Shown here piece after piece: positions 51,007-62,025 of a DNA stretch of 64,000 nucleotides. Position numbers and translations under genes: made by a program. The stretch comes from a bacterium UBP16_UBA6123. Its GTDB lineage: Bacteria; Muiribacteriota; UBA9980. Each line of letters begins with the position of its first letter. Positions within the stretch are counted from its first letter, which is position 1. The notes under the pieces were generated by a model, which did not search any database, was not told where the DNA came from, and saw only the letters and a list, made by a program, of their open reading frames with translations. The stretch spans positions 8,019 through 72,018 of the forward strand of contig DIVV01000135.1 of the NCBI GenBank assembly GCA_002423385.1. The letters are read 5' to 3'.

Positions 51007-52956
51007 TTATTTTAAAAACCTGTCGTTTTCTTTTCGGACGGTTATGCCGGTTTTATCGAAAAATTCAAGTATCGCTATGGCGTATTTTCTTGACAGCGTG
51101 GTTTTATCTTTGAAATCGATGACGCTAAAAGACGGCTTTGCCGAAATTATCTCTTTAATAGCCGAAAGATATGATTCCATCTGGCCGGCTGTTATATAAT
51201 AGTTTTCGAATATTCTATAAATCGATTTTTCGTTCTCTAAAAATTTAACTACTTTATTAAAAAGCTCGATCTGGTTTTTAGCGACGACGGCTTTTACCTC
51301 GTCGAGAGTTTTAGGCGTAAATGAAGCGCCGTCGAAAGATTTAAAGATTTTCCGCCTTATAATTTCGGAATCGCCTTCGAGTTTTTTTTCCGCCGCTCCG
51401 CCGCCGGCGGGTAAAGTTATCATTCCGTCGGCGTTTTTAATTTTATTTTCGGCGGCAGCCGAGTCTATGATGTATGAATAAAAAAGAGTTTCGTCTTCGT
51501 CCGGTTTCGCCGAATATAACTTGAAAAGCTCTAATTTTGTGATGCCGGCGTTCAATTTATTCGAATTTAAGTATTGGTTTAATTTATCAATCATTGACGC
51601 TTTAAATGCCTGCATGTTTTTTTCGCCTGTAATCAGCCGGTCTTTGATAAAAAGATATTTATCATCAGGCGCCGCGCGGGAAATAATATCGATTATTTTT
51701 TCTTTAATGGTCATAAAAGCGGCGCAGGCAAGATTTATTTCTATAAAGCCGCGCTTTTTAATTTCATTTGAAAAAAATAATTCGGCTATTTTAGTTTCAT
51801 CTTCCATCGGCGCGTCTTTAAAAATTGAAACGCTTTCCAGTACGGCTTTTTTATTTTTAACAAGCTGGTTATGACAGCTTAATATTATTCCGCCGCCGAT
51901 AGTTTCTTCGTCGGTATGCGTCCTGATTATGAATGGTTTTAAAATTAAAGCGAAATCAGCCGAAGCCAGAATTATCTGGGCCAGATAAATGCTGTCCGCC
52001 TCGAGTTCCGAAGTTTCTAAAAGCCTCAGTTTGGCGGCGTAACAGGCGGAATAAAAATAAAATTTAATATTGGCGCCGCTTTTAATTTTATGTTTGAGGT
52101 TTTTGGACGCGCGGAGTTTAACGGTTAAAACACGGTATGTGCAAGCGATTTCGCTTGAAACTAAAAACGAGCCGCGCGCGATTTCAGCTTCGCGCGTTTT
52201 TGTTATATTAAGCGCGGCGCGCAGGCCGCTGCTCACTTCGCTGAATTTAGCCGAATGTGATTCTATGGAGCGTACCTTGCATTCGCCGCCGGGCATTATT
52301 TTATAAATTCCGTCGGTTTTAAGGCATCCCCGCATGAGCGTGCCGGTTAAAATCTGCCCGAATCCCGCTTTATCAAAGACACGGTCAATCGGATAAAGCG
52401 TTAATTTATCGATTTCGCGCCCTCCGCCGCTGACGCCTTCGGCCGCTAGAGCGGCTATTTCTTTGCTGACGGCGGCGATTAATTCGGCGCTTCCTTTTTT
52501 ATCGGCCGCGGAAAAATTTATAATCTTTGAATTTTGAAATTTTGTGTCTTTTAAAAAATCTTCGATTTCCATTCTGCGGTACTCGATATCGTCTTCGGAA
52601 ACCAGGTCGCATTTATTGAGCACCGCTATTATTTTAGAAATTCCGCAAAAATTTAATATATCGAAGTGTTCGACGGTCTGCGGCATTATTCCTTCACTTG
52701 CCGCTATTACAAGCAGCGCGACGCGCGCGCCGAATATTCCGGCGAGCATGTTATGAACGAAATCTTCGTGGCCCGGAACATCTATTATGGAAACCGGCCC
52801 CGCGCCTTCTATATCGATATGCGCGAAGCCTATATCGATGGTGATTTCGCGCTCTATCTCCTCGCGGTAGCGCGCGGTGGTAATGCCCGTGAGCGCCTTG
52901 ATTACGCTTGATTTGCCGTGGTCAACGTGACCGGCCATTCCTATTACGAATCCCAT
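51007..52956 (-). CDS. selB: Selenocysteine-specific translation elongation factor
   Basis: GTPase N-terminus GMAGHVDHGKSS..., DVPGHEDF, NKCDL; 649 aa with long C-terminal winged-helix region as in bacterial SelB. Confidence 0.8.
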   Translation of the reverse strand: MGFVIGMAGHVDHGKSSVIKALTGITTARYREEIEREITIDIGFAHIDIEGAGPVSIIDVPGHEDFVHNMLAGIFGARVALLVIAASEGIMPQTVEHFDILNFCGISKIIAVLNKCDLVSEDDIEYRRMEIEDFLKDTKFQNSKIINFSAADKKGSAELIAAVSKEIAALAAEGVSGGGREIDKLTLYPIDRVFDKAGFGQILTGTLMRGCLKTDGIYKIMPGGECKVRSIESHSAKFSEVSSGLRAALNITKTREAEIARGSFLVSSEIACTYRVLTVKLRASKNLKHKIKSGANIKFYFYSACYAAKLRLLETSELEADSIYLAQIILASADFALILKPFIIRTHTDEETIGGGIILSCHNQLVKNKKAVLESVSIFKDAPMEDETKIAELFFSNEIKKRGFIEINLACAAFMTIKEKIIDIISRAAPDDKYLFIKDRLITGEKNMQAFKASMIDKLNQYLNSNKLNAGITKLELFKLYSAKPDEDETLFYSYIIDSAAAENKIKNADGMITLPAGGGAAEKKLEGDSEIIRRKIFKSFDGASFTPKTLDEVKAVVAKNQIELFNKVVKFLENEKSIYRIFENYYITAGQMESYLSAIKEIISAKPSFSVIDFKDKTTLSRKYAIAILEFFDKTGITVRKENDRFLK

Positions 52957-52983: not shown

Positions 52984-53655
52984 TTATTTCCATAAAAGCG
53001 CCAGGCCGCCCACGGTTTTATAGACGCCCTGATATAAATAATAAGAGCCGATTCCGATGGCGCAAATTTTACCTATCGTAACCGCCGTTTTTCCGCGGCA
53101 GGCCGCCCCCAGAAACGGGACGACCGCAAAGTATATCGAAGATCCCGCGAAAAAGGCGAAGTAGAAAAAAAGCGCGCTTAAAAGTCCGTGCCTGTTGGCT
53201 GCTTCAAAGACGGCTATGAGTATGGGCGGGCAGATATTAAACGCCGTTAAAAATCCCAGGCCGAGCGCCGTTTTTGAAAAAAATCCAGCGGCCCCTGAAC
53301 CGCCCGCGGCGCCGGCCGCGCTGGATGCATCGGCCCCGCAGCCGCAGGAGTTAGTTTTAGTTTTTATCAGGGCGTGGTGCATTAAAAACGCGGCCAGAAT
53401 AAAAAAAGAAACTCCGCTGATCACGTTTTTAATTACGTCGTTTTTAAATATGGCCTTACTGATATACCAGGCGAAGGTGCCGACCGCCATATAGCCCAAA
53501 AACCGTCCTAAAAGAAAATTAAGGCTTACTTTAAGCGTCTGGATAAATCCGTTTCCTTCGCTTAAAACATAAGGCACGACCAGCGGCGTACATGTAAACA
53601 GGCACACCGGGCTGAGACTGAGGCCGAGCATAAACGCTTTGATGAATGAATCCAT
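52984..53655 (-). CDS. CcdA/DsbD-family (DsbD_2-like) transmembrane thiol-disulfide transporter, tentative
   Basis: N-terminus AFMLGLSLSPVCLFTCTPLVVPYVLS parallels CcdA LSFLSPCVLPLVP; second Cys motif AFNICPPIL; ~6 TM; Gly/Ala/Ser-rich loop with CGCG. Confidence 0.45.
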   Translation of the reverse strand: MDSFIKAFMLGLSLSPVCLFTCTPLVVPYVLSEGNGFIQTLKVSLNFLLGRFLGYMAVGTFAWYISKAIFKNDVIKNVISGVSFFILAAFLMHHALIKTKTNSCGCGADASSAAGAAGGSGAAGFFSKTALGLGFLTAFNICPPILIAVFEAANRHGLLSALFFYFAFFAGSSIYFAVVPFLGAACRGKTAVTIGKICAIGIGSYYLYQGVYKTVGGLALLWK

Positions 53656-53694: not shown

Positions 53695-55032
53695 TTAATA
53701 AAAACCGAAAAATCTTGCTACCGCGGGGCCCGCGCCGGACATATTAAGCGATACCGGCACCATTAGTACGGCCAGCAGGTTGAGGCGTCGCGAGTGCCAC
53801 ATATTAGGCACGAGTCCGAGCGCGGTGGCGACGGTTAAAAGAACCATACCCTGCCAGTGGGTAATTTGTATCGTTAGTACGATTAACATCGCGCAGCCGA
53901 TGGCCGAAAACCAGTTGTAGTCGATTTTTTCTACAAGGTAAGCGCACAGGCGCGAGAACCAGCCGATCAGAAGAAACGATACGGCGCCGGTGAGTGCGAT
54001 TATCCCCGATATTAAAAAGAATTGCTCGGGAGTTTCGGGTACGAAAAATAAACTTATATTAATGGCCGCGCCGCCGCGTCTCATGAAAACGCCGGGCATG
54101 AAAAACAGCATCAACGCGCCCACATAGTATATAACGCGCCCCACGCCGCCGCCGATTAAAAACTGCCGCTCGCCCGATGTGACCGTTAAATGGCCGGTGC
54201 ATAAAAGCGCCGGGCCTGGAGTCATGCCGGGAACGAGCGCCGCGTAAAGGCCGGCTAAAAATCCCGAAGCGCTGCCGCGCATAACGTCGTGCGGCGCGGA
54301 TTCTACGGAGTCGCATATATATTGTTTGGGTACTTTAACCTTAGTCATAAAAGTCATTATCTGCGAGGGAATGGCGAAGAGTCCTACGAATAAGGGCATC
54401 AGCGACTGGAAGGCGTTTTCGACCGGAACGATGGTGCGGTAAAATACGAACATGCCGAGGATTCCAGCCACTATAAAGGTGAAATAGCCCATTAAAAGCT
54501 GGACCCAGCCGTCCCAGAATCTCTGCCAGCCGGTTTTTCCGACGCCGTGGTCTTTCGGCCACTCGGTCATCAAAATAAAAAACATGACAAGCGCGACCAT
54601 CCAGTAGCCGTGCGGCTGGACGATATTGCGCGCCAGGGCGAAAAACGAAGGTATAAGCGGAAATAATAGAGTTATTATAAAAATTGCCACCAGACTTCCG
54701 AGCGCGCCCAGCATTACCGCTTCGTGCCCTCTGCCTTCTAAAAGAAAGCGTTCGTGCGGCAGCATTATCGAACGGAAACTTTCATCGTTCGGCTGGAAAT
54801 ATTGTGAGGAAACCGTAAAGAGCATTGAAAACCCTACGACCATGCCGAGCATAAAGCCGGTAAGCACTATAGGATGAAGTCCTGAAAAAAGGTCGGCCGC
54901 CGTGAAAGCCAGCAGCATCGTAAGCGCGATGACGTTATAGATGTGAAGCCCCGGTATGATCGAGGCGAGCATCGCGATAAAAACTCCTATGAGCGAAGCT
55001 ATGATTGAATATATAACGATCGAGATTTCCAT
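53695..55032 (-). CDS. Polytopic membrane transporter, TctA/DUF112-like, tentative
   Basis: 445 aa, about 10-12 TM; two Pro/Gly-rich half-site motifs (IIPGLH..., LVPGMTPGPALL) resembling the TctA repeats. Confidence 0.3.
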   Translation of the reverse strand: MEISIVIYSIIASLIGVFIAMLASIIPGLHIYNVIALTMLLAFTAADLFSGLHPIVLTGFMLGMVVGFSMLFTVSSQYFQPNDESFRSIMLPHERFLLEGRGHEAVMLGALGSLVAIFIITLLFPLIPSFFALARNIVQPHGYWMVALVMFFILMTEWPKDHGVGKTGWQRFWDGWVQLLMGYFTFIVAGILGMFVFYRTIVPVENAFQSLMPLFVGLFAIPSQIMTFMTKVKVPKQYICDSVESAPHDVMRGSASGFLAGLYAALVPGMTPGPALLCTGHLTVTSGERQFLIGGGVGRVIYYVGALMLFFMPGVFMRRGGAAINISLFFVPETPEQFFLISGIIALTGAVSFLLIGWFSRLCAYLVEKIDYNWFSAIGCAMLIVLTIQITHWQGMVLLTVATALGLVPNMWHSRRLNLLAVLMVPVSLNMSGAGPAVARFFGFY

Positions 55033-55066: not shown

Positions 55067-55969
55067 TTAATTTAATATTATAATGGCGTCGGTTTCTTCT
55101 TCGTTGACCTTAATTTCCCAGTAACCGCCGCGTTCGTAAAAGACGAAAAGCCCGTTTATCGATAGTTTCTGCCCTTCTTTATACCGCGTGGAATCAACGC
55201 CGAAAACTATTACAGAAGCCGGTTTCGAGCCGGGAATGGTTTCAACGGCGGTATCGGCCACTTCGACTATGAGCTTGCCGCGTTTTGATACAACTATGGC
55301 TTCTTTTATCTTAATTTTTTTATTTTTGAAGTTATCGGGTTTTTCAAGAAGCGATTTGATATCCGCGTCGATGGTTTTATTTTCATTCGACTTATCTACC
55401 ACTTTTAAAAGTTCGGCGGTGCCGAGGCTCAGCGTGCGGTATCCTTTTCCGGCAAAAAGCGTCGCCGAGGCGTCGATGATATCGCCGCGGGCGGGCAGCA
55501 GCCCTTTTTCTTTAAGCTCTCTGGCGACTTCGCCTTCGGCTTTTAGTTTGATGCGGCCTTCGTAGTCGTCGCCGCTGCCTTTAGATGCGTCTTCGAGCTC
55601 TAATTGTATCGTCGAGCGCTTCTGGTATTTGTCTTTGAATTCGCTTATATAGCGCACTTTTGCAAGTACGCGCACGTGCGAAAAATTCATGGTTTCGTTA
55701 AGATCGCCTATGGCTATATAATTCGGGCTCAAACTTACCGATATCGCGAAATAAACGAGGGCGGCTATAAAAAGTATTATAGTCGAAAGATTCATACTTC
55801 TTACGCTTATCCGCTCGCGCGGCGGGGTAAGCGCGCAGCAGTAAGCGCACCTTTTTTTAAATTCAGGGTTCGGCCGTCCGCAGCTCGGGCATTTGTCCGC
55901 GATATTAAGCGTTTCCGGCGCGCCGTCCATATTCATGGTATCTATTTCAAAATTATTTTGATCGCTCAA
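55067..55969 (-). CDS. Membrane protein: N-terminal Cys4 zinc ribbon, single TM, extracytoplasmic region with two OB-fold-like modules
   Basis: CPSCGRPNPEFKKRCAYCC; TM IILFIAALVYFAISV; paralog of the adjacent gene (ARELKEKGLLPARGDIIDASATL vs TRELVEAKKLPAFGDKIKMTASF). Confidence 0.4.
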   Translation of the reverse strand: MSDQNNFEIDTMNMDGAPETLNIADKCPSCGRPNPEFKKRCAYCCALTPPRERISVRSMNLSTIILFIAALVYFAISVSLSPNYIAIGDLNETMNFSHVRVLAKVRYISEFKDKYQKRSTIQLELEDASKGSGDDYEGRIKLKAEGEVARELKEKGLLPARGDIIDASATLFAGKGYRTLSLGTAELLKVVDKSNENKTIDADIKSLLEKPDNFKNKKIKIKEAIVVSKRGKLIVEVADTAVETIPGSKPASVIVFGVDSTRYKEGQKLSINGLFVFYERGGYWEIKVNEEETDAIIILN

Positions 55970-55997
55970 TGTTATCCTCCATATACGGTATACGACA

Positions 55998-56897
55998 TTA
56001 CATCATATTGTCTTTTTTGACGATATCTTCGCTCGCTTTTATGATACTTTCGGCCGAGGGGAGCACAATTACGAAATATTTATCGTCTTTTTTGCCGCGC
56101 AGTTCGAGCGCTCCGCTTAAAGTGATAAAATCGCCTTCGCGCGGCGCGTCTTTCCACTCATCGGCGTTTTCTTTGACGAGGCGTCCCGCCTGCAAAGCGG
56201 AAAACGGCATTACCGCGGTCAGCCGGGTTTCATCGGTCGCCTCGCCGGCTTCCAGGTCGATTTCAAGCTCGTATCTGGAGCTGTTGACGGCCGCAACGCG
56301 CCCCGACACCTTTACGATATCGCCGCGTTTGAATTTATCGCCGGGGTTTTCATTGACGGTTTTAATCGGTGAAGCGGTTTCGGGCGTATGGCGCTCTATT
56401 TTAATGCCTTTTTCCGAGCCGAGTATTAAGAAACCGCCCTTGCCTTTATATTGAAAACTTGCCGTCATTTTGATTTTATCGCCGAAGGCGGGGAGTTTTT
56501 TGGCTTCGACGAGTTCGCGCGTGGCGTCGTCATAGCAGCGAACGAGCATAAGGGCGGTGCCGTCGTCGATTTCGAATTCGACCGAACCTCCGGCGTTTTC
56601 GCCTTTATCGGCGGCCGCATAGTAGCGCAGTGGCGCGTTAACGACGGCGTTAGTGGTTACCTGGGCGAAGTTGCTACGTTTGGTGAGCGTGTCGAGCTTA
56701 ACCTCGGGATTGCCGTAATGAACGCCGATATAATGAAGTACAAAGAGGCCAAGGACTGATATTATGGGGGTTAAATATTTAATCAGGCGTACCGAAAGCC
56801 TCTTGGGATTAAAACTACGGCAGAAAGGACACAATTCCAGCGCGCCGACAAAACGGCCGCAGGTTTTACAGTGCGTTTCTTCGTAATTTTGACTCAT
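55998..56897 (-). CDS. Paralogous zinc-ribbon / TM / 2xOB-fold-like membrane protein
   Basis: CKTCGRFVGALELCPFC; TM PIISVLGLFVLHYIGV; C-terminal region homologous to 55067-55969. Confidence 0.4.
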   Translation of the reverse strand: MSQNYEETHCKTCGRFVGALELCPFCRSFNPKRLSVRLIKYLTPIISVLGLFVLHYIGVHYGNPEVKLDTLTKRSNFAQVTTNAVVNAPLRYYAAADKGENAGGSVEFEIDDGTALMLVRCYDDATRELVEAKKLPAFGDKIKMTASFQYKGKGGFLILGSEKGIKIERHTPETASPIKTVNENPGDKFKRGDIVKVSGRVAAVNSSRYELEIDLEAGEATDETRLTAVMPFSALQAGRLVKENADEWKDAPREGDFITLSGALELRGKKDDKYFVIVLPSAESIIKASEDIVKKDNMM

Positions 56898-57002
56898 GAC
56901 GATTTTTTCGACTTCAGGTTTTAGTTTAATAACATACCACCCTCTTTACAATTATTTATATTAAAAATTGCCTTATTTTGCCGTTCTATTTGGTAATATG
57001 AT

Positions 57003-58838
57003 TTATCTTTTAAGCCTTATTTTCGGGCGCAGGTCTTGATTCGGGGCGTTGCTGATATCGTTAGCCTGTTCCATAAGCGTTTTATGCGGTCCGCCTTCTA
57101 TATCGCGGAATTTGACGAATCCTTCGTTCATGAGTTTTTTCAGAAGCGTTTCGATGCGGCTGAATCGATAAGCGTTGGTGCTTTCTTTAAAGCCGAGTTC
57201 GAAAAACCTGTTTTCTTCTATGAAGAAGAAGTACTGAACGCATGGTGATTTGCCTTCGGGCGCGTCGCGGTTTTTATCCAGGTGCAGGCTCAGTATATCT
57301 ATTTTAGGCAGATGTATAGGGTCTTTATTCATAGATTCAGCCAGATGGGCCATCTGGTTGTATAATTCTTTCGAATCGCCCCAGTCTTTGCTTAATATCA
57401 TCGCGCAGTCCAGATCGTATTCGATGTCGCCGGAGCCTTTGCAATGGTACAAACCCGGCCTTTCATCGTCATTTTCGGTTATTTCGATCATACAGCCTTC
57501 TTTGTTTAAAGACGATATGATTATAAGCGGGCAGTTAAGTTCTATGGTAAGGCGTTTCAGGTCGGTGGATATCTCTTCCACTCTGAATTTTTCGGAGTCG
57601 TAATTTCTGGCGATCGGCATTTTCTGGATATAATCGCAGACTATTAAAACCTCGTCGGTTTGATGGTCCTGCATGGCGTTATAGGCGTGGGCCTTGATGC
57701 GGTCAACCGTGTCTTCTTTGGTGCCTTCGATTACATAAAGGCAGTCCATGTATTGTTCCATTTTAACCCAGCCCTGGGCGAATTTCATATCGTTTTCGGG
57801 CACGCCCTTGATGCGGCGTCGTTGAAGAGTGTCGGGGTTGATCCTGGTTTCTTTAGCTAAAAGCCTGTAGGTGAGGTTCTTTTTAGTCTGTTCCCAGGTG
57901 AAGAACAGGACGGGCTTTTTGCTGTTAGAGGCCACCAGCGTGGCTAATTCGAGAGTAAAATTGGTCTTGCCGCGCCTCGGCGCGCCCGCTATGCCGTATA
58001 AAAATCCGCGCCTGAGGCCTGAAATGGCGCTGCTTAAATCGCTGAAAGGTTTCAGCGAATATCCAAGGCAGTCTTTTTCGCCTTCGAGCTCGCGCTGATT
58101 GATATCCTGAGCTATTTCAATCATCTGCGCCTTGATGAGCTGTATTTCTTTTTTGGACTGAGCCCTCTGGATATCGCGAATTTCTTTGGTGATTTCGCTC
58201 GAAAAATCGATGAAGCTCATTTTGGCTTCCTTATCGACGCCCTTTAAAAAATTATTGATGCGATGAGTGATTTCGCGAAGCTGATGCTTTGAACTTTCTT
58301 CTCGCAGTATCTTAAGATAAGCCATCACCTGCGAAAGTTGAGGCACGCGCGATTTAGTGACCAGGTCGAAAAAGCGTTTCATATTATCGTCGAAAAGTTT
58401 GTTCTGTTCGAGCTTATTTCTTATTATTATCGCGTCAACTACTTTTTCGCGGCCGACTCCGGCGTAAACGTCCTGTATCATTCTGAAAATATGCTTCGAA
58501 TAAATATTATGAAGCATTTTTTCATTGAAGCCTTCGTTTAATACCTTGCCGAGCATGTACTGATCGTTTATAAAGCCGTTTAGTATGGTTATTTCTATTT
58601 CTTCGTTTAAATCGGAAGCCGGCGGCATTTCATAAGAATGTGATGACGGCGCGGCCGCTGTCACGCCGGAGGATTCTACTCTGCTGGCTGCTTGAGCGTC
58701 GCCGCCCGTGGCGCTTTTATCGCGTACGGCGCGAAGCGGCTCCGTACGGGCGCTCTGGAATATAGAAAACGCGCATTTGCCGCAAATTCCGGAAAAGTTG
58801 CTTTCGGGTATGCCTGCACCGCATTTTTTGCATTTCAT
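57003..58838 (-). CDS. DnaB-family helicase with N-terminal Cys4 zinc ribbon and ~90-aa C-terminal extension
   Basis: CKKCGAGIPESNFSGICGKC; DnaB-N-like segment (FNEKMLHNIYSKHIFRMIQDVY...); RecA-like core with Walker A GAPRRGKT, Walker B VLIVCDYIQKM, and KGSGDIEYDLD. Confidence 0.55.
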   Translation of the reverse strand: MKCKKCGAGIPESNFSGICGKCAFSIFQSARTEPLRAVRDKSATGGDAQAASRVESSGVTAAAPSSHSYEMPPASDLNEEIEITILNGFINDQYMLGKVLNEGFNEKMLHNIYSKHIFRMIQDVYAGVGREKVVDAIIIRNKLEQNKLFDDNMKRFFDLVTKSRVPQLSQVMAYLKILREESSKHQLREITHRINNFLKGVDKEAKMSFIDFSSEITKEIRDIQRAQSKKEIQLIKAQMIEIAQDINQRELEGEKDCLGYSLKPFSDLSSAISGLRRGFLYGIAGAPRRGKTNFTLELATLVASNSKKPVLFFTWEQTKKNLTYRLLAKETRINPDTLQRRRIKGVPENDMKFAQGWVKMEQYMDCLYVIEGTKEDTVDRIKAHAYNAMQDHQTDEVLIVCDYIQKMPIARNYDSEKFRVEEISTDLKRLTIELNCPLIIISSLNKEGCMIEITENDDERPGLYHCKGSGDIEYDLDCAMILSKDWGDSKELYNQMAHLAESMNKDPIHLPKIDILSLHLDKNRDAPEGKSPCVQYFFFIEENRFFELGFKESTNAYRFSRIETLLKKLMNEGFVKFRDIEGGPHKTLMEQANDISNAPNQDLRPKIRLKR

Positions 58839-58890: not shown

Positions 58891-59952
58891 TCAGTTTAAA
58901 CAGTTGTGGCAGGCAGCGAATCGGCCTGCCGTGACTTCTTTCAGCGCCGGGCGTTCTTTTAAGCATATATCGGTTTTAAAATCGCAGCGCGGGCTGAAGT
59001 AACAGTAATTACCGGACGATTCGACTTCGTTTATATCCGCTACGGAAAGGTCCGATACTTCTTTATGCGTTAATTCGTTGTTTTCAAATTTCTTCAAAAA
59101 ATTTTCGCGTGATTTTTCGTCGAATGTGAGTATTGAATCTTTTAATAATTTAGAGTACGGATGATACTGTTTATTAAAAAAAAGGCCGCCAGGGGCTAAT
59201 TCCATAACCCGTCCCATGTAGAGCACCATCACCCTGTCGCTTATGTGATTTATTACCGCCAGGTTATGTGAAATAAAAATATAAGTCAGGCCGAATTCGG
59301 CCTGCAGGTCGCGCATTAAATTCAACACCTGCGCCTGCACCGATACGTCGAGCGCTGAGACCGGCTCGTCGGCGATAATTATTTCAGGATTGAGAGCCAG
59401 CGCCCTCGCTATGCCTATTCTTTGCTTTTGCCCGCCCGAGAACTCGTGTGGATAGCGCTGCGCCATCTCGGCTGAAATGCCGACTTTTTCAAGAAGGCCG
59501 TAAACGAATTCGCGCCTTTCGTTTTTGCGCGGGTAGATATCATGAACTATGAGCGGCTCTTCTACTATCTGATTGGCCCGCCATTTCGGGTCTAAACTGA
59601 GATTGGGGTCCTGAAAGATCATTTGAAACTTTCGCCGGTATTTAAAAAGCTCGGCCCGCGATTTTATCTGAAAAAAATCTATGCCGCCGGGGCCGTATTC
59701 GGACCCGTGATATATCAGGCTGCCTCCGGCGGGCTCTATAAGGCGCATTATGGTCTTGCCGAGCGTCGATTTACCGCAGCCCGATTCGCCGACGATGCCG
59801 AGCGTTTCGCCGCGCGCTATTTTAAAATTGACGCCGTCAACGGCTTTTTTGTAGCCGTAAAGTTTTTGGAACAGTCCGCGGCGCATGGGAAAATAAGTTT
59901 TAATGCCGCTGGCCTCGAGTATCGCATTTTTATCGGGCGCCATATAAGCCAT
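58891..59952 (-). CDS. ABC transporter ATP-binding protein, oligopeptide/dipeptide (OppF/DppF) type, no cognate permease/SBP adjacent
   Basis: Walker [10 protein letters not shown], signature [15 protein letters not shown], Walker B IIIADEP, C-terminal oligo_HPY-like tail. Confidence 0.75.
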
Positions 59953-60004
59953 CCGTTTATTCTATCATATGATAAATTACATCCGTTGAATCAAGTCGGT
60001 TAAG

Positions 60005-60556
60005 TTAAATTATTTCTTTAAATATTTCGGCCTTCGGCGAAGGTATTACGACGGCGTTAACTAAAAGCCCTTTTTCGCCTATTATTTTAACGGCGGCATC
60101 TACCGCCTCGCGGACGTTTGAAACCGTTCCGGTCATCGTGCAGTAAGCCTTTCCGCCAAGCGCCATAGCGAGCCTTATTTCGATAAGCTCTACGTTAGCC
60201 GCTTTGACGGCCGCGTCGGCGCCTTCTATAAGAGAGGCCACCGAAAAGGCTTCTACGATTCCCAGCGCGTCGGGTTTGCAAAAATCGCAGGCGCCCTTAA
60301 TGGCTTTAAAAACCGATTCGTGAACGTTAGGGATCACGAAGGAATCTATCAAAGTATTTGCGGCGGCTTCGATTCCCGCTTCTACCGAAGATTTTACCGC
60401 GGCGACCTCGCCGCCCACTAAAGCTACGAATTTGCCCGAACATACGGTTCTGAGTAATAACAATTCGGTGTTCGCAGCTTTTATCATCGTGTCGCCGATT
60501 AAAAAACCGGAGGCGACAGAAGATGATTCTATTATTCCAATAGCTCTGCTAGTCAT
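60005..60556 (-). CDS. pduT: Tandem-BMC-domain microcompartment shell protein, PduT-like (Fe-S pore Cys conserved)
   Basis: 183 aa, two BMC repeats (AIGIIESSSVASG...KAANTEL and ALGIVEAFSVASL...KAANVEL); near-collinear with Salmonella PduT including RTVCSGKF (PduT TICPGKF, 4Fe-4S ligand Cys). Confidence 0.75.
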   Translation of the reverse strand: MTSRAIGIIESSSVASGFLIGDTMIKAANTELLLLRTVCSGKFVALVGGEVAAVKSSVEAGIEAAANTLIDSFVIPNVHESVFKAIKGACDFCKPDALGIVEAFSVASLIEGADAAVKAANVELIEIRLAMALGGKAYCTMTGTVSNVREAVDAAVKIIGEKGLLVNAVVIPSPKAEIFKEII

Positions 60557-60587
60557 GATTCTTTTCCTTTCCCGGATTAAATGATCA

Positions 60588-60640
60588 GTTGTTAGTCGTT
60601 AGGGGGCCGTTAGTCGTTAGTTGTTAGTTATTAGAGGTTA
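60588..60640. repeat. GTTAG-based direct repeats (GTTAGTCGTTAG x2 separated by GGGGCC, plus further GTTAG copies) in the PduS-like/PduT spacer
   Basis: Seen directly: 60591-60602 and 60609-60620 are identical 12-mers; additional gttag at 60623-60627 and ttattag following. Confidence 0.8.
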
Positions 60641-60690
60641 CTAAATTAAATATAGTTGGCAGTTTCACGCGTTGTGTTATTTTTAAAGCG

Positions 60691-62025
60691 TTAAACGGCT
60701 TTTATTATTATGGCGTCTTTTCTTATCGAAGAAACCGTTCCGTCTATCGAGGCGTGAATGTCGGCGCCAAGTTTATTTTCGGCCATAGTGGCTATCAACT
60801 GCCCTTTTTTAACGGTTTCACCTATTGACACTAAAGGTTCCGCGGGCTGGCCTATATGCTGTTTTAATAATATAGTTACCGATTCGGGTTTGATTTCGAT
60901 TAAATTCAGTTCGGCATGATCGTTATAGCCGCCAAGCCCGATTTTATTTATTAATTTTTTAGTCGGCACTTTTCGATATTGCGCCATAGGATGAGCTTTT
61001 AAATTATCTTTTTTCGCTTCGAATTTTAATCCGCCCGCTATGGCGTCACGCTTGGCCGAGGCGCACATAAAGTTGGGCAGCAAATCTTCGGGGCACGAAT
61101 AAAAACCGCATAAACCGCACTCTACGCATCCCGACGCCCATTTAGTTATCAGCGGATCGTTTTGCGAGCTCATTAAAAGAGTGCGCATTACGCGGTGCGG
61201 CTCTATCTGGTGGCCGACGAGGTAGCGCGGGCAGAACTCGGTGCAGTAGGAGCATTGATCGCAGGCCGATTTGCCGACTTTTTTGAACTGCGCAGGTTTT
61301 TGGGTTTTGCGCTGTATGAATTTATGTCCGGCTGAAAGCACTATATATCCCGAAGAGGTTTTAGTGATCGGAGTTTCGGCGTCATAAACTATCTCGCTCA
61401 TCATGGCGCCGCCCGACATATAAACCGGATCGGAAACAAGTGTTTTTCCCGCCAGGCCGATGATATCTGAAATTTTAACGCCTATAGGCACTTTCAGGGT
61501 TATCGGATGTTCGACTTCGCCGGCGATAGTTAAAAATTTGTCGGTAACTGGCGCCGAAGTTTTATAGGCGGCAAAAATATTATAAAAAGTTTCAACATTT
61601 GAAACTATAACGCCAACATTGAGCGGAATTCCCCCTGGCGGCACGATACGGCCGAGTACGTCGCTCACCATCACCACTTCGTCGCCCGCCGGATAATAAT
61701 CGCCGATAATATGTATTTTAATTCTACCGTCGAGCTTATTAGCGGCGATTATCTCATTCATTTTTTCGATAGCTTCTTTATTTTTGCTTTTAAGCGCTAT
61801 TATACCGCATTTTGCAGATGAATTAGCCGTGGTTAAAAGCAGGCCGCCGATTATCTCTTCGGCGAAGTTCTTCATCATTTCTTTATCTTTACATAAAAGA
61901 GGTTCGCACTCGGCGCCGTTGACGATAATGGTATCGACTTTAGCGTTCATTTTAACGTGAGACGGAAATCCGGCGCCGCCAGCGCCTACTATTCCGGCTT
62001 TTTTGATCGTATCGATTAAATTCAT
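60691..62025 (-). CDS. RnfC/complex-I-51K-family flavo-Fe-S oxidoreductase, PduS-like
   Basis: GAGGAGFP nucleotide/FMN motif, two 4Fe-4S motifs (CDQCSYCTEFCP, CVECGLCGFYSCP), 444 aa, immediately upstream of pduT as in pdu operons. Confidence 0.6.
   Translation of the reverse strand: MNLIDTIKKAGIVGAGGAGFPSHVKMNAKVDTIIVNGAECEPLLCKDKEMMKNFAEEIIGGLLLTTANSSAKCGIIALKSKNKEAIEKMNEIIAANKLDGRIKIHIIGDYYPAGDEVVMVSDVLGRIVPPGGIPLNVGVIVSNVETFYNIFAAYKTSAPVTDKFLTIAGEVEHPITLKVPIGVKISDIIGLAGKTLVSDPVYMSGGAMMSEIVYDAETPITKTSSGYIVLSAGHKFIQRKTQKPAQFKKVGKSACDQCSYCTEFCPRYLVGHQIEPHRVMRTLLMSSQNDPLITKWASGCVECGLCGFYSCPEDLLPNFMCASAKRDAIAGGLKFEAKKDNLKAHPMAQYRKVPTKKLINKIGLGGYNDHAELNLIEIKPESVTILLKQHIGQPAEPLVSIGETVKKGQLIATMAENKLGADIHASIDGTVSSIRKDAIIIKAV

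Follow-up and report, generated by a model that had tools for sequence, protein, structure and literature searches.

Three consecutive minus-strand genes in a 64,000-nt stretch of contig DIVV01000135.1 (positions 8,019 to 72,018; hereafter the window, to which all coordinates without a locus name refer) encode proteins that begin with a four-cysteine (Cys4) zinc ribbon: a 611-residue DnaB-family helicase (57003-58838; open reading frame, Pfam and TIGR00665), and two membrane proteins, pA (299 residues; 55998-56897) and pB (300 residues, TTG start; 55067-55969). The reading that we favor, with a probability of about 0.75, is that they represent two independent units joined by a recent rearrangement, namely the DnaB of the clade and a membrane module composed of pA, pB and the TctA-like permease encoded behind them (445 residues; 53695-55032); these genes all lie on the minus strand, within an uninterrupted run that extends from an ABC ATPase gene to selB. 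A first-pass annotation had described the three consecutive ribbon-bearing genes, a complete RecA-like core with its motifs in the 611-residue protein, and, in the other two, paralogs of about 300 residues with one transmembrane (TM) helix and two OB-like modules; all of this is borne out by the open reading frames, the Pfam and BLASTP matches, the AlphaFold2 model of pA and profile comparison. Its proposal of a common partner or of membrane tethering, drawn from the shared ribbons, is not supported, as the junction is absent at 75% DnaB identity, the pA-pB-TctA-like cluster travels alone, and the ribbons are dissimilar.

The nearest named relatives of the window are metagenome-assembled genomes (MAGs) of Candidatus Wallbacteria, with Riflebacteria/Ozemobacteraceae farther away (~50% identity); orthologs are 46-98% identical to the window's DnaB in Wallbacteria and ~50% in Riflebacteria, and some metagenome contigs carry identical copies of the DnaB gene and its neighbors. 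At least five related genomes (L012-L016) share the order DnaB-pA-pB, and the DnaB-pA junction is found only at DnaB identities of 90% or more. In relatives at 92% (L015, L016), nucleotide homology runs on into pA; in relatives at 75% (L010, L017), it ends ~90 nt before the DnaB stop codon and never resumes. In these latter genomes (L010/L018, L017) the upstream order of BMC-domain protein, ABC ATPase and DnaB is kept, the downstream genes encode ComFB and STAS proteins, and pA and pB are missing. The synteny breakpoint is the DnaB-pA gap (56898-57002), an AT-rich interval (28% GC) of 105 nt, compared to spacers of 27-39 nt from pA through selB.

Elsewhere, the two units occur apart at all loci examined. 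In HGW-Wallbacteria-1 (46%), the origin-type cluster dnaA-recF-DciA-remA-gyrB-gyrA (L004 1-9961) lies just upstream of DnaB, placing the gene 10 kb downstream, and an unrelated 521-residue protein follows; in L008 (52%), alr precedes DnaB and a TPR-like protein follows; and in Ozemobacter (~50%), DnaB sits between bamA/lpx genes and a GH3 glycosidase. The genes behind DnaB in HGW-Wallbacteria-1 and L008 were considered as fused relatives of pA and pB, and rejected as unrelated lipoprotein-like or TPR-like proteins. Conversely, the pA-pB-TctA-like cluster is found without DnaB upstream in L011/L031, L026, L030, L032, L033, L034, L036, L038 and L039, and in one Wallbacteria MAG the order is amidohydrolase, pA, pB, TctA-like, with the long DnaB on another contig.

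The ribbons themselves are alike in their cysteine spacing. All three N-termini have the form CxxC-x(9-12)-CxxC (CKKCGAGIPESNFSGICGKC at residues 3-22 of DnaB, CKTCGRFVGALELCPFC at residues 10-26 of pA, and CPSCGRPNPEFKKRCAYC at residues 27-44 of pB), and in a crude set of 55 genes of the window only these three show CxxC-x6-25-CxxC within their first 70 residues. Pfam scans of the three isolated N-termini give only weak matches, each to a different generic ribbon model, and hidden Markov models of the pA and pB families find no further matches among the open reading frames of the window, DnaB included. A shared ribbon family is rejected on these grounds, with no similarity detectable beyond the CxxC pattern. 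As tandem paralogs, pA and pB count as one, which leaves just two independent ribbon-bearing units, whose adjacency we estimate to be a mild coincidence, of roughly 4% within the window; it is confined to one shallow, genus-level clade of Wallbacteria.

The paralogy of pA and pB is seen in direct comparison (BLASTP, 26% identity over 191 residues, E 1e-10) and in that of their family profiles (hhalign, probability 98.9%, E 3e-17), where 245 columns align across both barrels. The AlphaFold2 model of pA (predicted local distance difference test, pLDDT, 84.7; predicted TM-score, pTM, 0.72) contains the ribbon, one TM helix (residues 34-60), and two β-barrels, the OB folds, at residues 79-168 and 194-287; in pB the ribbon is followed by a TM helix at about residues 54-79 and two OB modules. 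In both, a cluster of Lys and Arg residues, read from the sequence, precedes the TM helix; both are therefore predicted to be single-pass proteins of N-in topology, whose ribbon faces the cytoplasm and whose two OB folds lie outside. The best structural neighbors are nucleic-acid-binding OB folds.

A word-indexed search returns only 15 relatives of pA, all from Wallbacteria, but an exhaustive search with the A1 profile yields 525 cluster representatives at E<=1e-3. A Cys4 ribbon within the first 90 residues is present in 138 of the best 149 family representatives and is followed by a TM helix in 136 of them, so that this layout is, as far as sequence can tell, a hallmark of the family, whose members combine a CxxCGR...CPxC ribbon, a basic stretch, one TM helix and at least one PF01336-like OB fold. 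In databases they are named 'uncharacterized OB-fold protein' or 'hypothetical'. Some pB-type proteins have three to four OB modules (L034 5791-7512; L036 1541-3070), and one family member of 2672 residues (P0207) has 15 matched stretches; the ectodomain appears to be modular and expandable. Distant members of the family are not linked to a TctA-like gene; in one such case (L027 6001-11135), a 581-residue protein adjoins a CHAT protease gene and, probably by coincidence, lies two genes from a RadA/Sms-like gene (zinc ribbon, DnaB-like ATPase and ChlI).

Closer to the window's own proteins, pA, pB and the TctA-like permease form a membrane module that is conserved across phyla. TctA-like orthologs, 55-99% identical, follow pA-pB in L011-L013, L015, L016, L026, L028-L034, L036, L038 and L039. 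Separate pA-type and pB-type orthologs accompany TctA-like in two MAGs whose labels are Planctomycetes (L036) and Deltaproteobacteria (L038); the same triplet, again with both types of ortholog, is found in L039, a MAG labelled as a Thermoplasmatota archaeon (the taxon being the label of the bin only); a Kiritimatiellales locus has a single OB protein together with TctA-like. In four loci from different phyla, a YdjM-like membrane hydrolase (PF04307) comes after TctA-like (L026 8309-9535; L036 6938-8161; L037 6430-7377; L038 6348-7547), and in L011 (18679-19902) it lies further downstream; the genes of these five loci encode ~315-408 residues and are 29-50% identical. The window has no YdjM-like homolog, and literature searches found no paper that treats YdjM together with TctA.

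The permease matches Pfam TctA (PF01970) over its full length but weakly (4.8e-24, 85 bits), and no relative of it was found in the PDB. It shares this family with the large subunit of the TctABC citrate system of Salmonella, from which the cluster differs in having OB-fold partners in place of TctB and TctC; since neither of the two is encoded in the window's neighborhood or at the related loci, it is not a classical tripartite tricarboxylate transporter (TTT). The one functional precedent for the pairing of an OB-fold and a TctA-like protein that was found in the literature comes from Methanococcus maripaludis, where MMJJ_13020, a nucleic-acid-binding OB-fold protein that has a single TM helix, and the adjoining MMJJ_13030, which is TctA-like and has 11 TM helices and no TctB or TctC, are each indispensable for natural transformation (Fonseca et al. 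2023, PMC10133366); in Methanoculleus thermophilus, too, a TctA-like homolog is essential, and the authors propose that the TctA-like protein is the archaeal DNA transporter (PMC10133366). In architecture, the archaeal pair resembles the bacterial cluster: a single-TM protein with a PF01336-type OB fold stands beside a PF01970 protein, without TctB or TctC. The bacterial cluster differs in having two paralogous OB proteins, each with a zinc ribbon and two OB modules, and in being often followed by a YdjM-like gene.

By this analogy, our best guess is that the module captures and imports an extracellular polyanion, possibly DNA or oligonucleotides, with a carboxylate as the main alternative; we infer that pA and pB would assemble with the permease as its outward-facing binding subunits, replacing the missing TctB and TctC. 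A parallel of our own may be drawn with ComEC, whose three modules find counterparts in the OB folds of pA and pB, the polytopic TctA-like protein, and the YdjM-like metal hydrolase of other loci; these are, however, separate polypeptides instead of one and have no sequence relationship to ComEC, whose domains (Competence, DUF4131, Lactamase_B) find no Pfam match in pA, pB or TctA-like. The bolder proposal, that the cluster together with YdjM-like is a ComEC-independent bacterial counterpart of the archaeal DNA importer, in which the ribbons would take over the strand as it enters or provide a dock for a cytoplasmic partner, must be called unlikely on present analogies.

The 611-residue protein has the build of a DnaB with additions at both ends. 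Residues 78-548 (57195-58607) form the DnaB body, with the N-terminal helical domain, the linker helix and the RecA-like domain; TIGR00665 aligns over residues 78-545, covering model positions 5-430 of 435. DnaB_C (PF03796) matches at 8e-37 (127.4 bits, cutoff 27); the match to the N-terminal domain (PF00772) is weak (E 0.0017, 18.8 bits, below the 23-bit cutoff), and this domain is called in several orthologs. DnaB structures in the PDB match with E down to 5e-21. E. coli DnaB aligns over the full length of the body at 24% identity, with Walker A (GAPRRGKT) and Walker B (DYIQKM) conserved, the KxRxxPxG loop retained as KNRDAPEG, and the motif KGSGDIEYD present; relative to E. coli DnaB, there is an insertion of ~16 residues after motif H4. 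Ahead of the body stand the Cys4 ribbon (residues 3-22, 58773-58832; sequence, alignment and AlphaFold2), with pLDDT 68-80 in the monomer model, and a low-complexity linker of ~47 residues (31-77, 58608-58748), which is predicted to be disordered (pLDDT <50 for residues 31-73). Behind it, past the end of E. coli DnaB, comes an extension of ~60 residues (549-611, 57006-57194; pI, the isoelectric point, 10.0) that E. coli DnaB, which ends where the extra helix begins, does not have; it consists of a conserved helix (YRFSRIETLLKKLMNEGF), a variable stretch, and the basic tail RPKIRLKR. In the monomer model, helix 555-571 reaches pLDDT ~75-80 and the tail stays <50; docking of the tail onto the ribbon was considered, but the model leaves both ends flexible and is uninformative on this point.

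An N-terminal Cys4 element ahead of a DnaB-like ATPase also occurs in RadA/Sms and in T7 gp4/Twinkle, both of which lack the DnaB N-terminal domain that is present here. RadA/Sms differs further in its Lon/ChlI domain and its KNRFG loop, and gp4/Twinkle in its Toprim primase domain, where the 611-residue protein has ribbon, disordered linker and DnaB N-terminal domain; Pfam and NCBIfam scans find neither Lon/ChlI nor Toprim in it, and both identities are rejected. Phage or plasmid DnaB is rejected as well, as the cutoffs of the models for this group, TIGR03600 (149.9 vs 498.65 bits) and the SPI-7 type (101 vs 655 bits), are missed, and no phage or other mobile-element genes surround DnaB at any locus examined. 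Text searches of the literature found no description of a zinc-ribbon DnaB.

The additions are a property of the clade. In alignment A3, which holds 29 clade members, 26 of them of the long form, the four N-terminal cysteines are kept in all 26 long orthologs from both phyla, as is the succession of Cys4 ribbon, Pro/Ala/Ser-rich linker, conserved body, extra helix (YRFxKIExLxxxL), variable stretch and basic tail (R-x-K-I-R/K-L-K). Linker length ranges from tens of residues to roughly 250 or more; in Riflebacteria (P0037, P0054, P0066, P0077) the linkers have ~200-260 residues and are Pro/Ala-rich, and a GGFSL...L motif, which Wallbacteria do not have, stands right behind the ribbon. A gene for a small STAS-domain protein (anti-sigma antagonist-like) is found one or two genes from the DnaB ortholog in three divergent Wallbacteria lineages (L004 9575-9961; L008 8270-8653; L010 12394-12771); it does not adjoin DnaB in the window. 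The presence of DciA in the origin-type cluster of HGW-Wallbacteria-1 suggests a DciA-type loader for this unusual DnaB.

Six Wallbacteria MAGs, scanned at contig level with a DnaB query (L019-L024), have two DnaB loci each, one long and one short; in one of them the long copy is 98% identical to the window's. The short copy (518-546 residues, 65-69% identical) keeps the extra C-terminal helix and is without ribbon, linker and basic tail, so that the helix occurs in both paralogs and the tail is confined to the ribbon-bearing forms. Neighbor-joining on the core places the short copies in a single clade whose sister is formed by the long copies from the same genomes, which indicates a duplication inside Wallbacteria. 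Core identity in the closest genome pairs is 97% for the long vs 84% for the short copies, and in more distant pairs 82% vs 73-75%; constraint is therefore stronger on the long copy. The short copies lie in ordinary chromosomal contexts that differ between genomes. The ribbon-bearing gene is thus, judging from these sequence patterns, most probably the replicative helicase, and the short gene a derived paralog. The ribbon-bearing product would be the 5'-3' helicase of Wallbacteria and Riflebacteria, a RecA-type hexamer for which DciA, encoded beside dnaA in a relative, is the presumed loader. From the joint loss of ribbon and tail in the paralog, the sole clue to what they do, we infer that they act together, possibly as a flexible, auxiliary tether by which the replicative copy holds DNA or a partner protein.

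These results agree with one candidate explanation of the first-pass annotation, that the protein is the lineage's replicative DnaB, divergent and with extensions specific to the lineage, as the orthologs share ribbon, linker and tail among unrelated neighbors; the extensions stand, although their lengths had been put too high (~70 residues for the linker and ~90 for the C-terminal part). The idea that the protein is simply the DnaB of its lineage holds for the shared extensions and the unrelated neighbors, but not in the sense of a sole dnaB, given the ribbon-less paralog of the six MAGs. A mobile-element-derived helicase finds no backing in the scores against phage and plasmid models or in the gene contexts, and a role in DNA uptake, discarded for the helicase, may apply to the pA-pB-TctA-like cluster by the M. 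maripaludis analogy (PMC10133366).

Several points weigh against the reading of two independent units, or against the roles proposed for them. On the side of the membrane module, the ectodomains have a pI of 5.4 (pA) and 7.9 (pB), are thus not basic, and lend no positive support to DNA binding; also, the match to the archaeal pair is an analogy of domain pair, topology and adjacency. It is possible, if on the doubtful side, that the module is an ordinary carboxylate-type TTT transporter that does not handle nucleic acids and in which the OB proteins replace TctB and TctC; the full-length Pfam match would agree with this, as would the name 'tripartite tricarboxylate transporter permease' that homologs bear in databases and the lack of basic character in the ectodomains. 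However, TctB and TctC are absent, the nearest structural neighbors of the OB folds bind nucleic acids, the sole genetic data on an OB and TctA-like pair point to DNA uptake (PMC10133366), and the recurrent YdjM-like metal hydrolase is an unexpected neighbor for a carboxylate importer.

On the side of the helicase, the TIGR00665 equivalog cutoff is missed by a wide span (163.8 vs 385.25 bits), and at residues 457-468 (57435-57470, minus strand) the clade shows CKGSGDIEYDLD in place of the LRESGSIEQDAD of canonical DnaB: K467, invariant in the 29 clade members, aligns with the Arg of E. coli LRESG, which we take to be the arginine finger of DnaB and for which the lysine could substitute. The paralog, moreover, is present in the same genomes as the ribbon-bearing DnaB. 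Together with the missed TIGR03600 cutoff, the extra domains, and a score for the phage DnaB-like phrog_19 (156 bits) about equal to that for the bacterial DnaB model, these points would fit an accessory helicase, for repair or recombination or of mobile-element origin, with replication left to an unseen canonical dnaB or to the short paralog. RadA/Sms offers a precedent for a recombination helicase built as a DnaB-like ATPase with a fused zinc finger. We nevertheless consider such an accessory role quite unlikely: the ribbon form is conserved across two candidate phyla and origin-proximal in HGW-Wallbacteria-1, the short paralog is a young, faster-evolving duplicate nested in Wallbacteria, no mobile-element genes are found around DnaB, and the protein has a full DnaB N-terminal domain and linker helix with neither Lon/ChlI nor Toprim.

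On the side of the junction, DnaB is followed in the window's own clade by five same-strand genes, from pA to selB, with which it is possibly co-transcribed, no terminator being predicted in the DnaB-pA interval. That DnaB, pA and pB cooperate, their ribbons binding each other or a common partner and so tethering a DNA-handling helicase to the membrane, is very improbable all the same: the common strand and short gaps, the gene order kept in related genomes, the sole three N-terminal ribbons among 55 genes, and a helicase neighbor that would make functional sense if the module imports DNA are set against ribbons alike only in their CxxC pattern, a junction that is lost at 75% identity though upstream synteny persists, and orthologs that never adjoin one another elsewhere, by which synteny largely refutes the joint module.

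The remaining surroundings are those of an ordinary chromosomal context. Upstream of DnaB lies a run encoding an RnfC-like Fe-S protein, a BMC-domain protein and an ABC ATPase (58891-62025), the last of these (58891-59952, minus strand) a lone oligopeptide-type ATPase without adjacent permease; the run is syntenic even at 75% DnaB identity, and further upstream come pdxJ, rpoN, TsaE and a response regulator. Downstream of TctA-like follow a DsbD_2/CcdA-like membrane protein (52984-53655, minus strand), with the cysteine motifs CLFTC and CGCG and an Ala/Gly/Ser-rich loop, and, directly behind it, selB (51007-52956, minus strand); it is only within the window's own clade (L016, L029) that this pair comes after TctA-like. 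No tRNA genes were detected in the window, nor any Rfam match at gathering score, and the domains in the ten large open reading frames that were scanned elsewhere in it are of housekeeping, signalling and metabolic kinds. A mobile-element or defense origin of the gene run was considered and rejected, as pA, pB and TctA-like have no matches in PHROG or PADLOC and the neighbors are ordinary.

With the three-gene ribbon module dissolved, follow-up effort on it is saved, and two things are left: an architectural variant of DnaB that is new and has an informative paralog, and a bacterial module that is related to the archaeal OB/TctA-like pair by its architecture. The first is a DnaB, characteristic of a clade at the level of candidate phyla, that combines a tethered zinc ribbon with a basic tail and a lysine for the RESG arginine; on a bolder and rather unlikely reading, ribbon and tail would form a device for loading or tethering that is built into the replicative helicase of these two groups, Wallbacteria and Riflebacteria, and specific to it, and the stripped-down paralog of one subgroup provides a natural with/without comparison for the function of the additions. 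The second concerns a pairing for which a link to function had come only from two methanogens, where the genes are candidates for archaeal DNA uptake. It now emerges as a cluster that is conserved in several bacterial phyla, in which the pA/pB duplication is fixed and a YdjM-like partner recurs. If the analogy is true, the proposed archaeal importer has bacterial relatives and its mechanism becomes accessible to comparative study, possibly in cultivable Planctomycetes or Kiritimatiellia.

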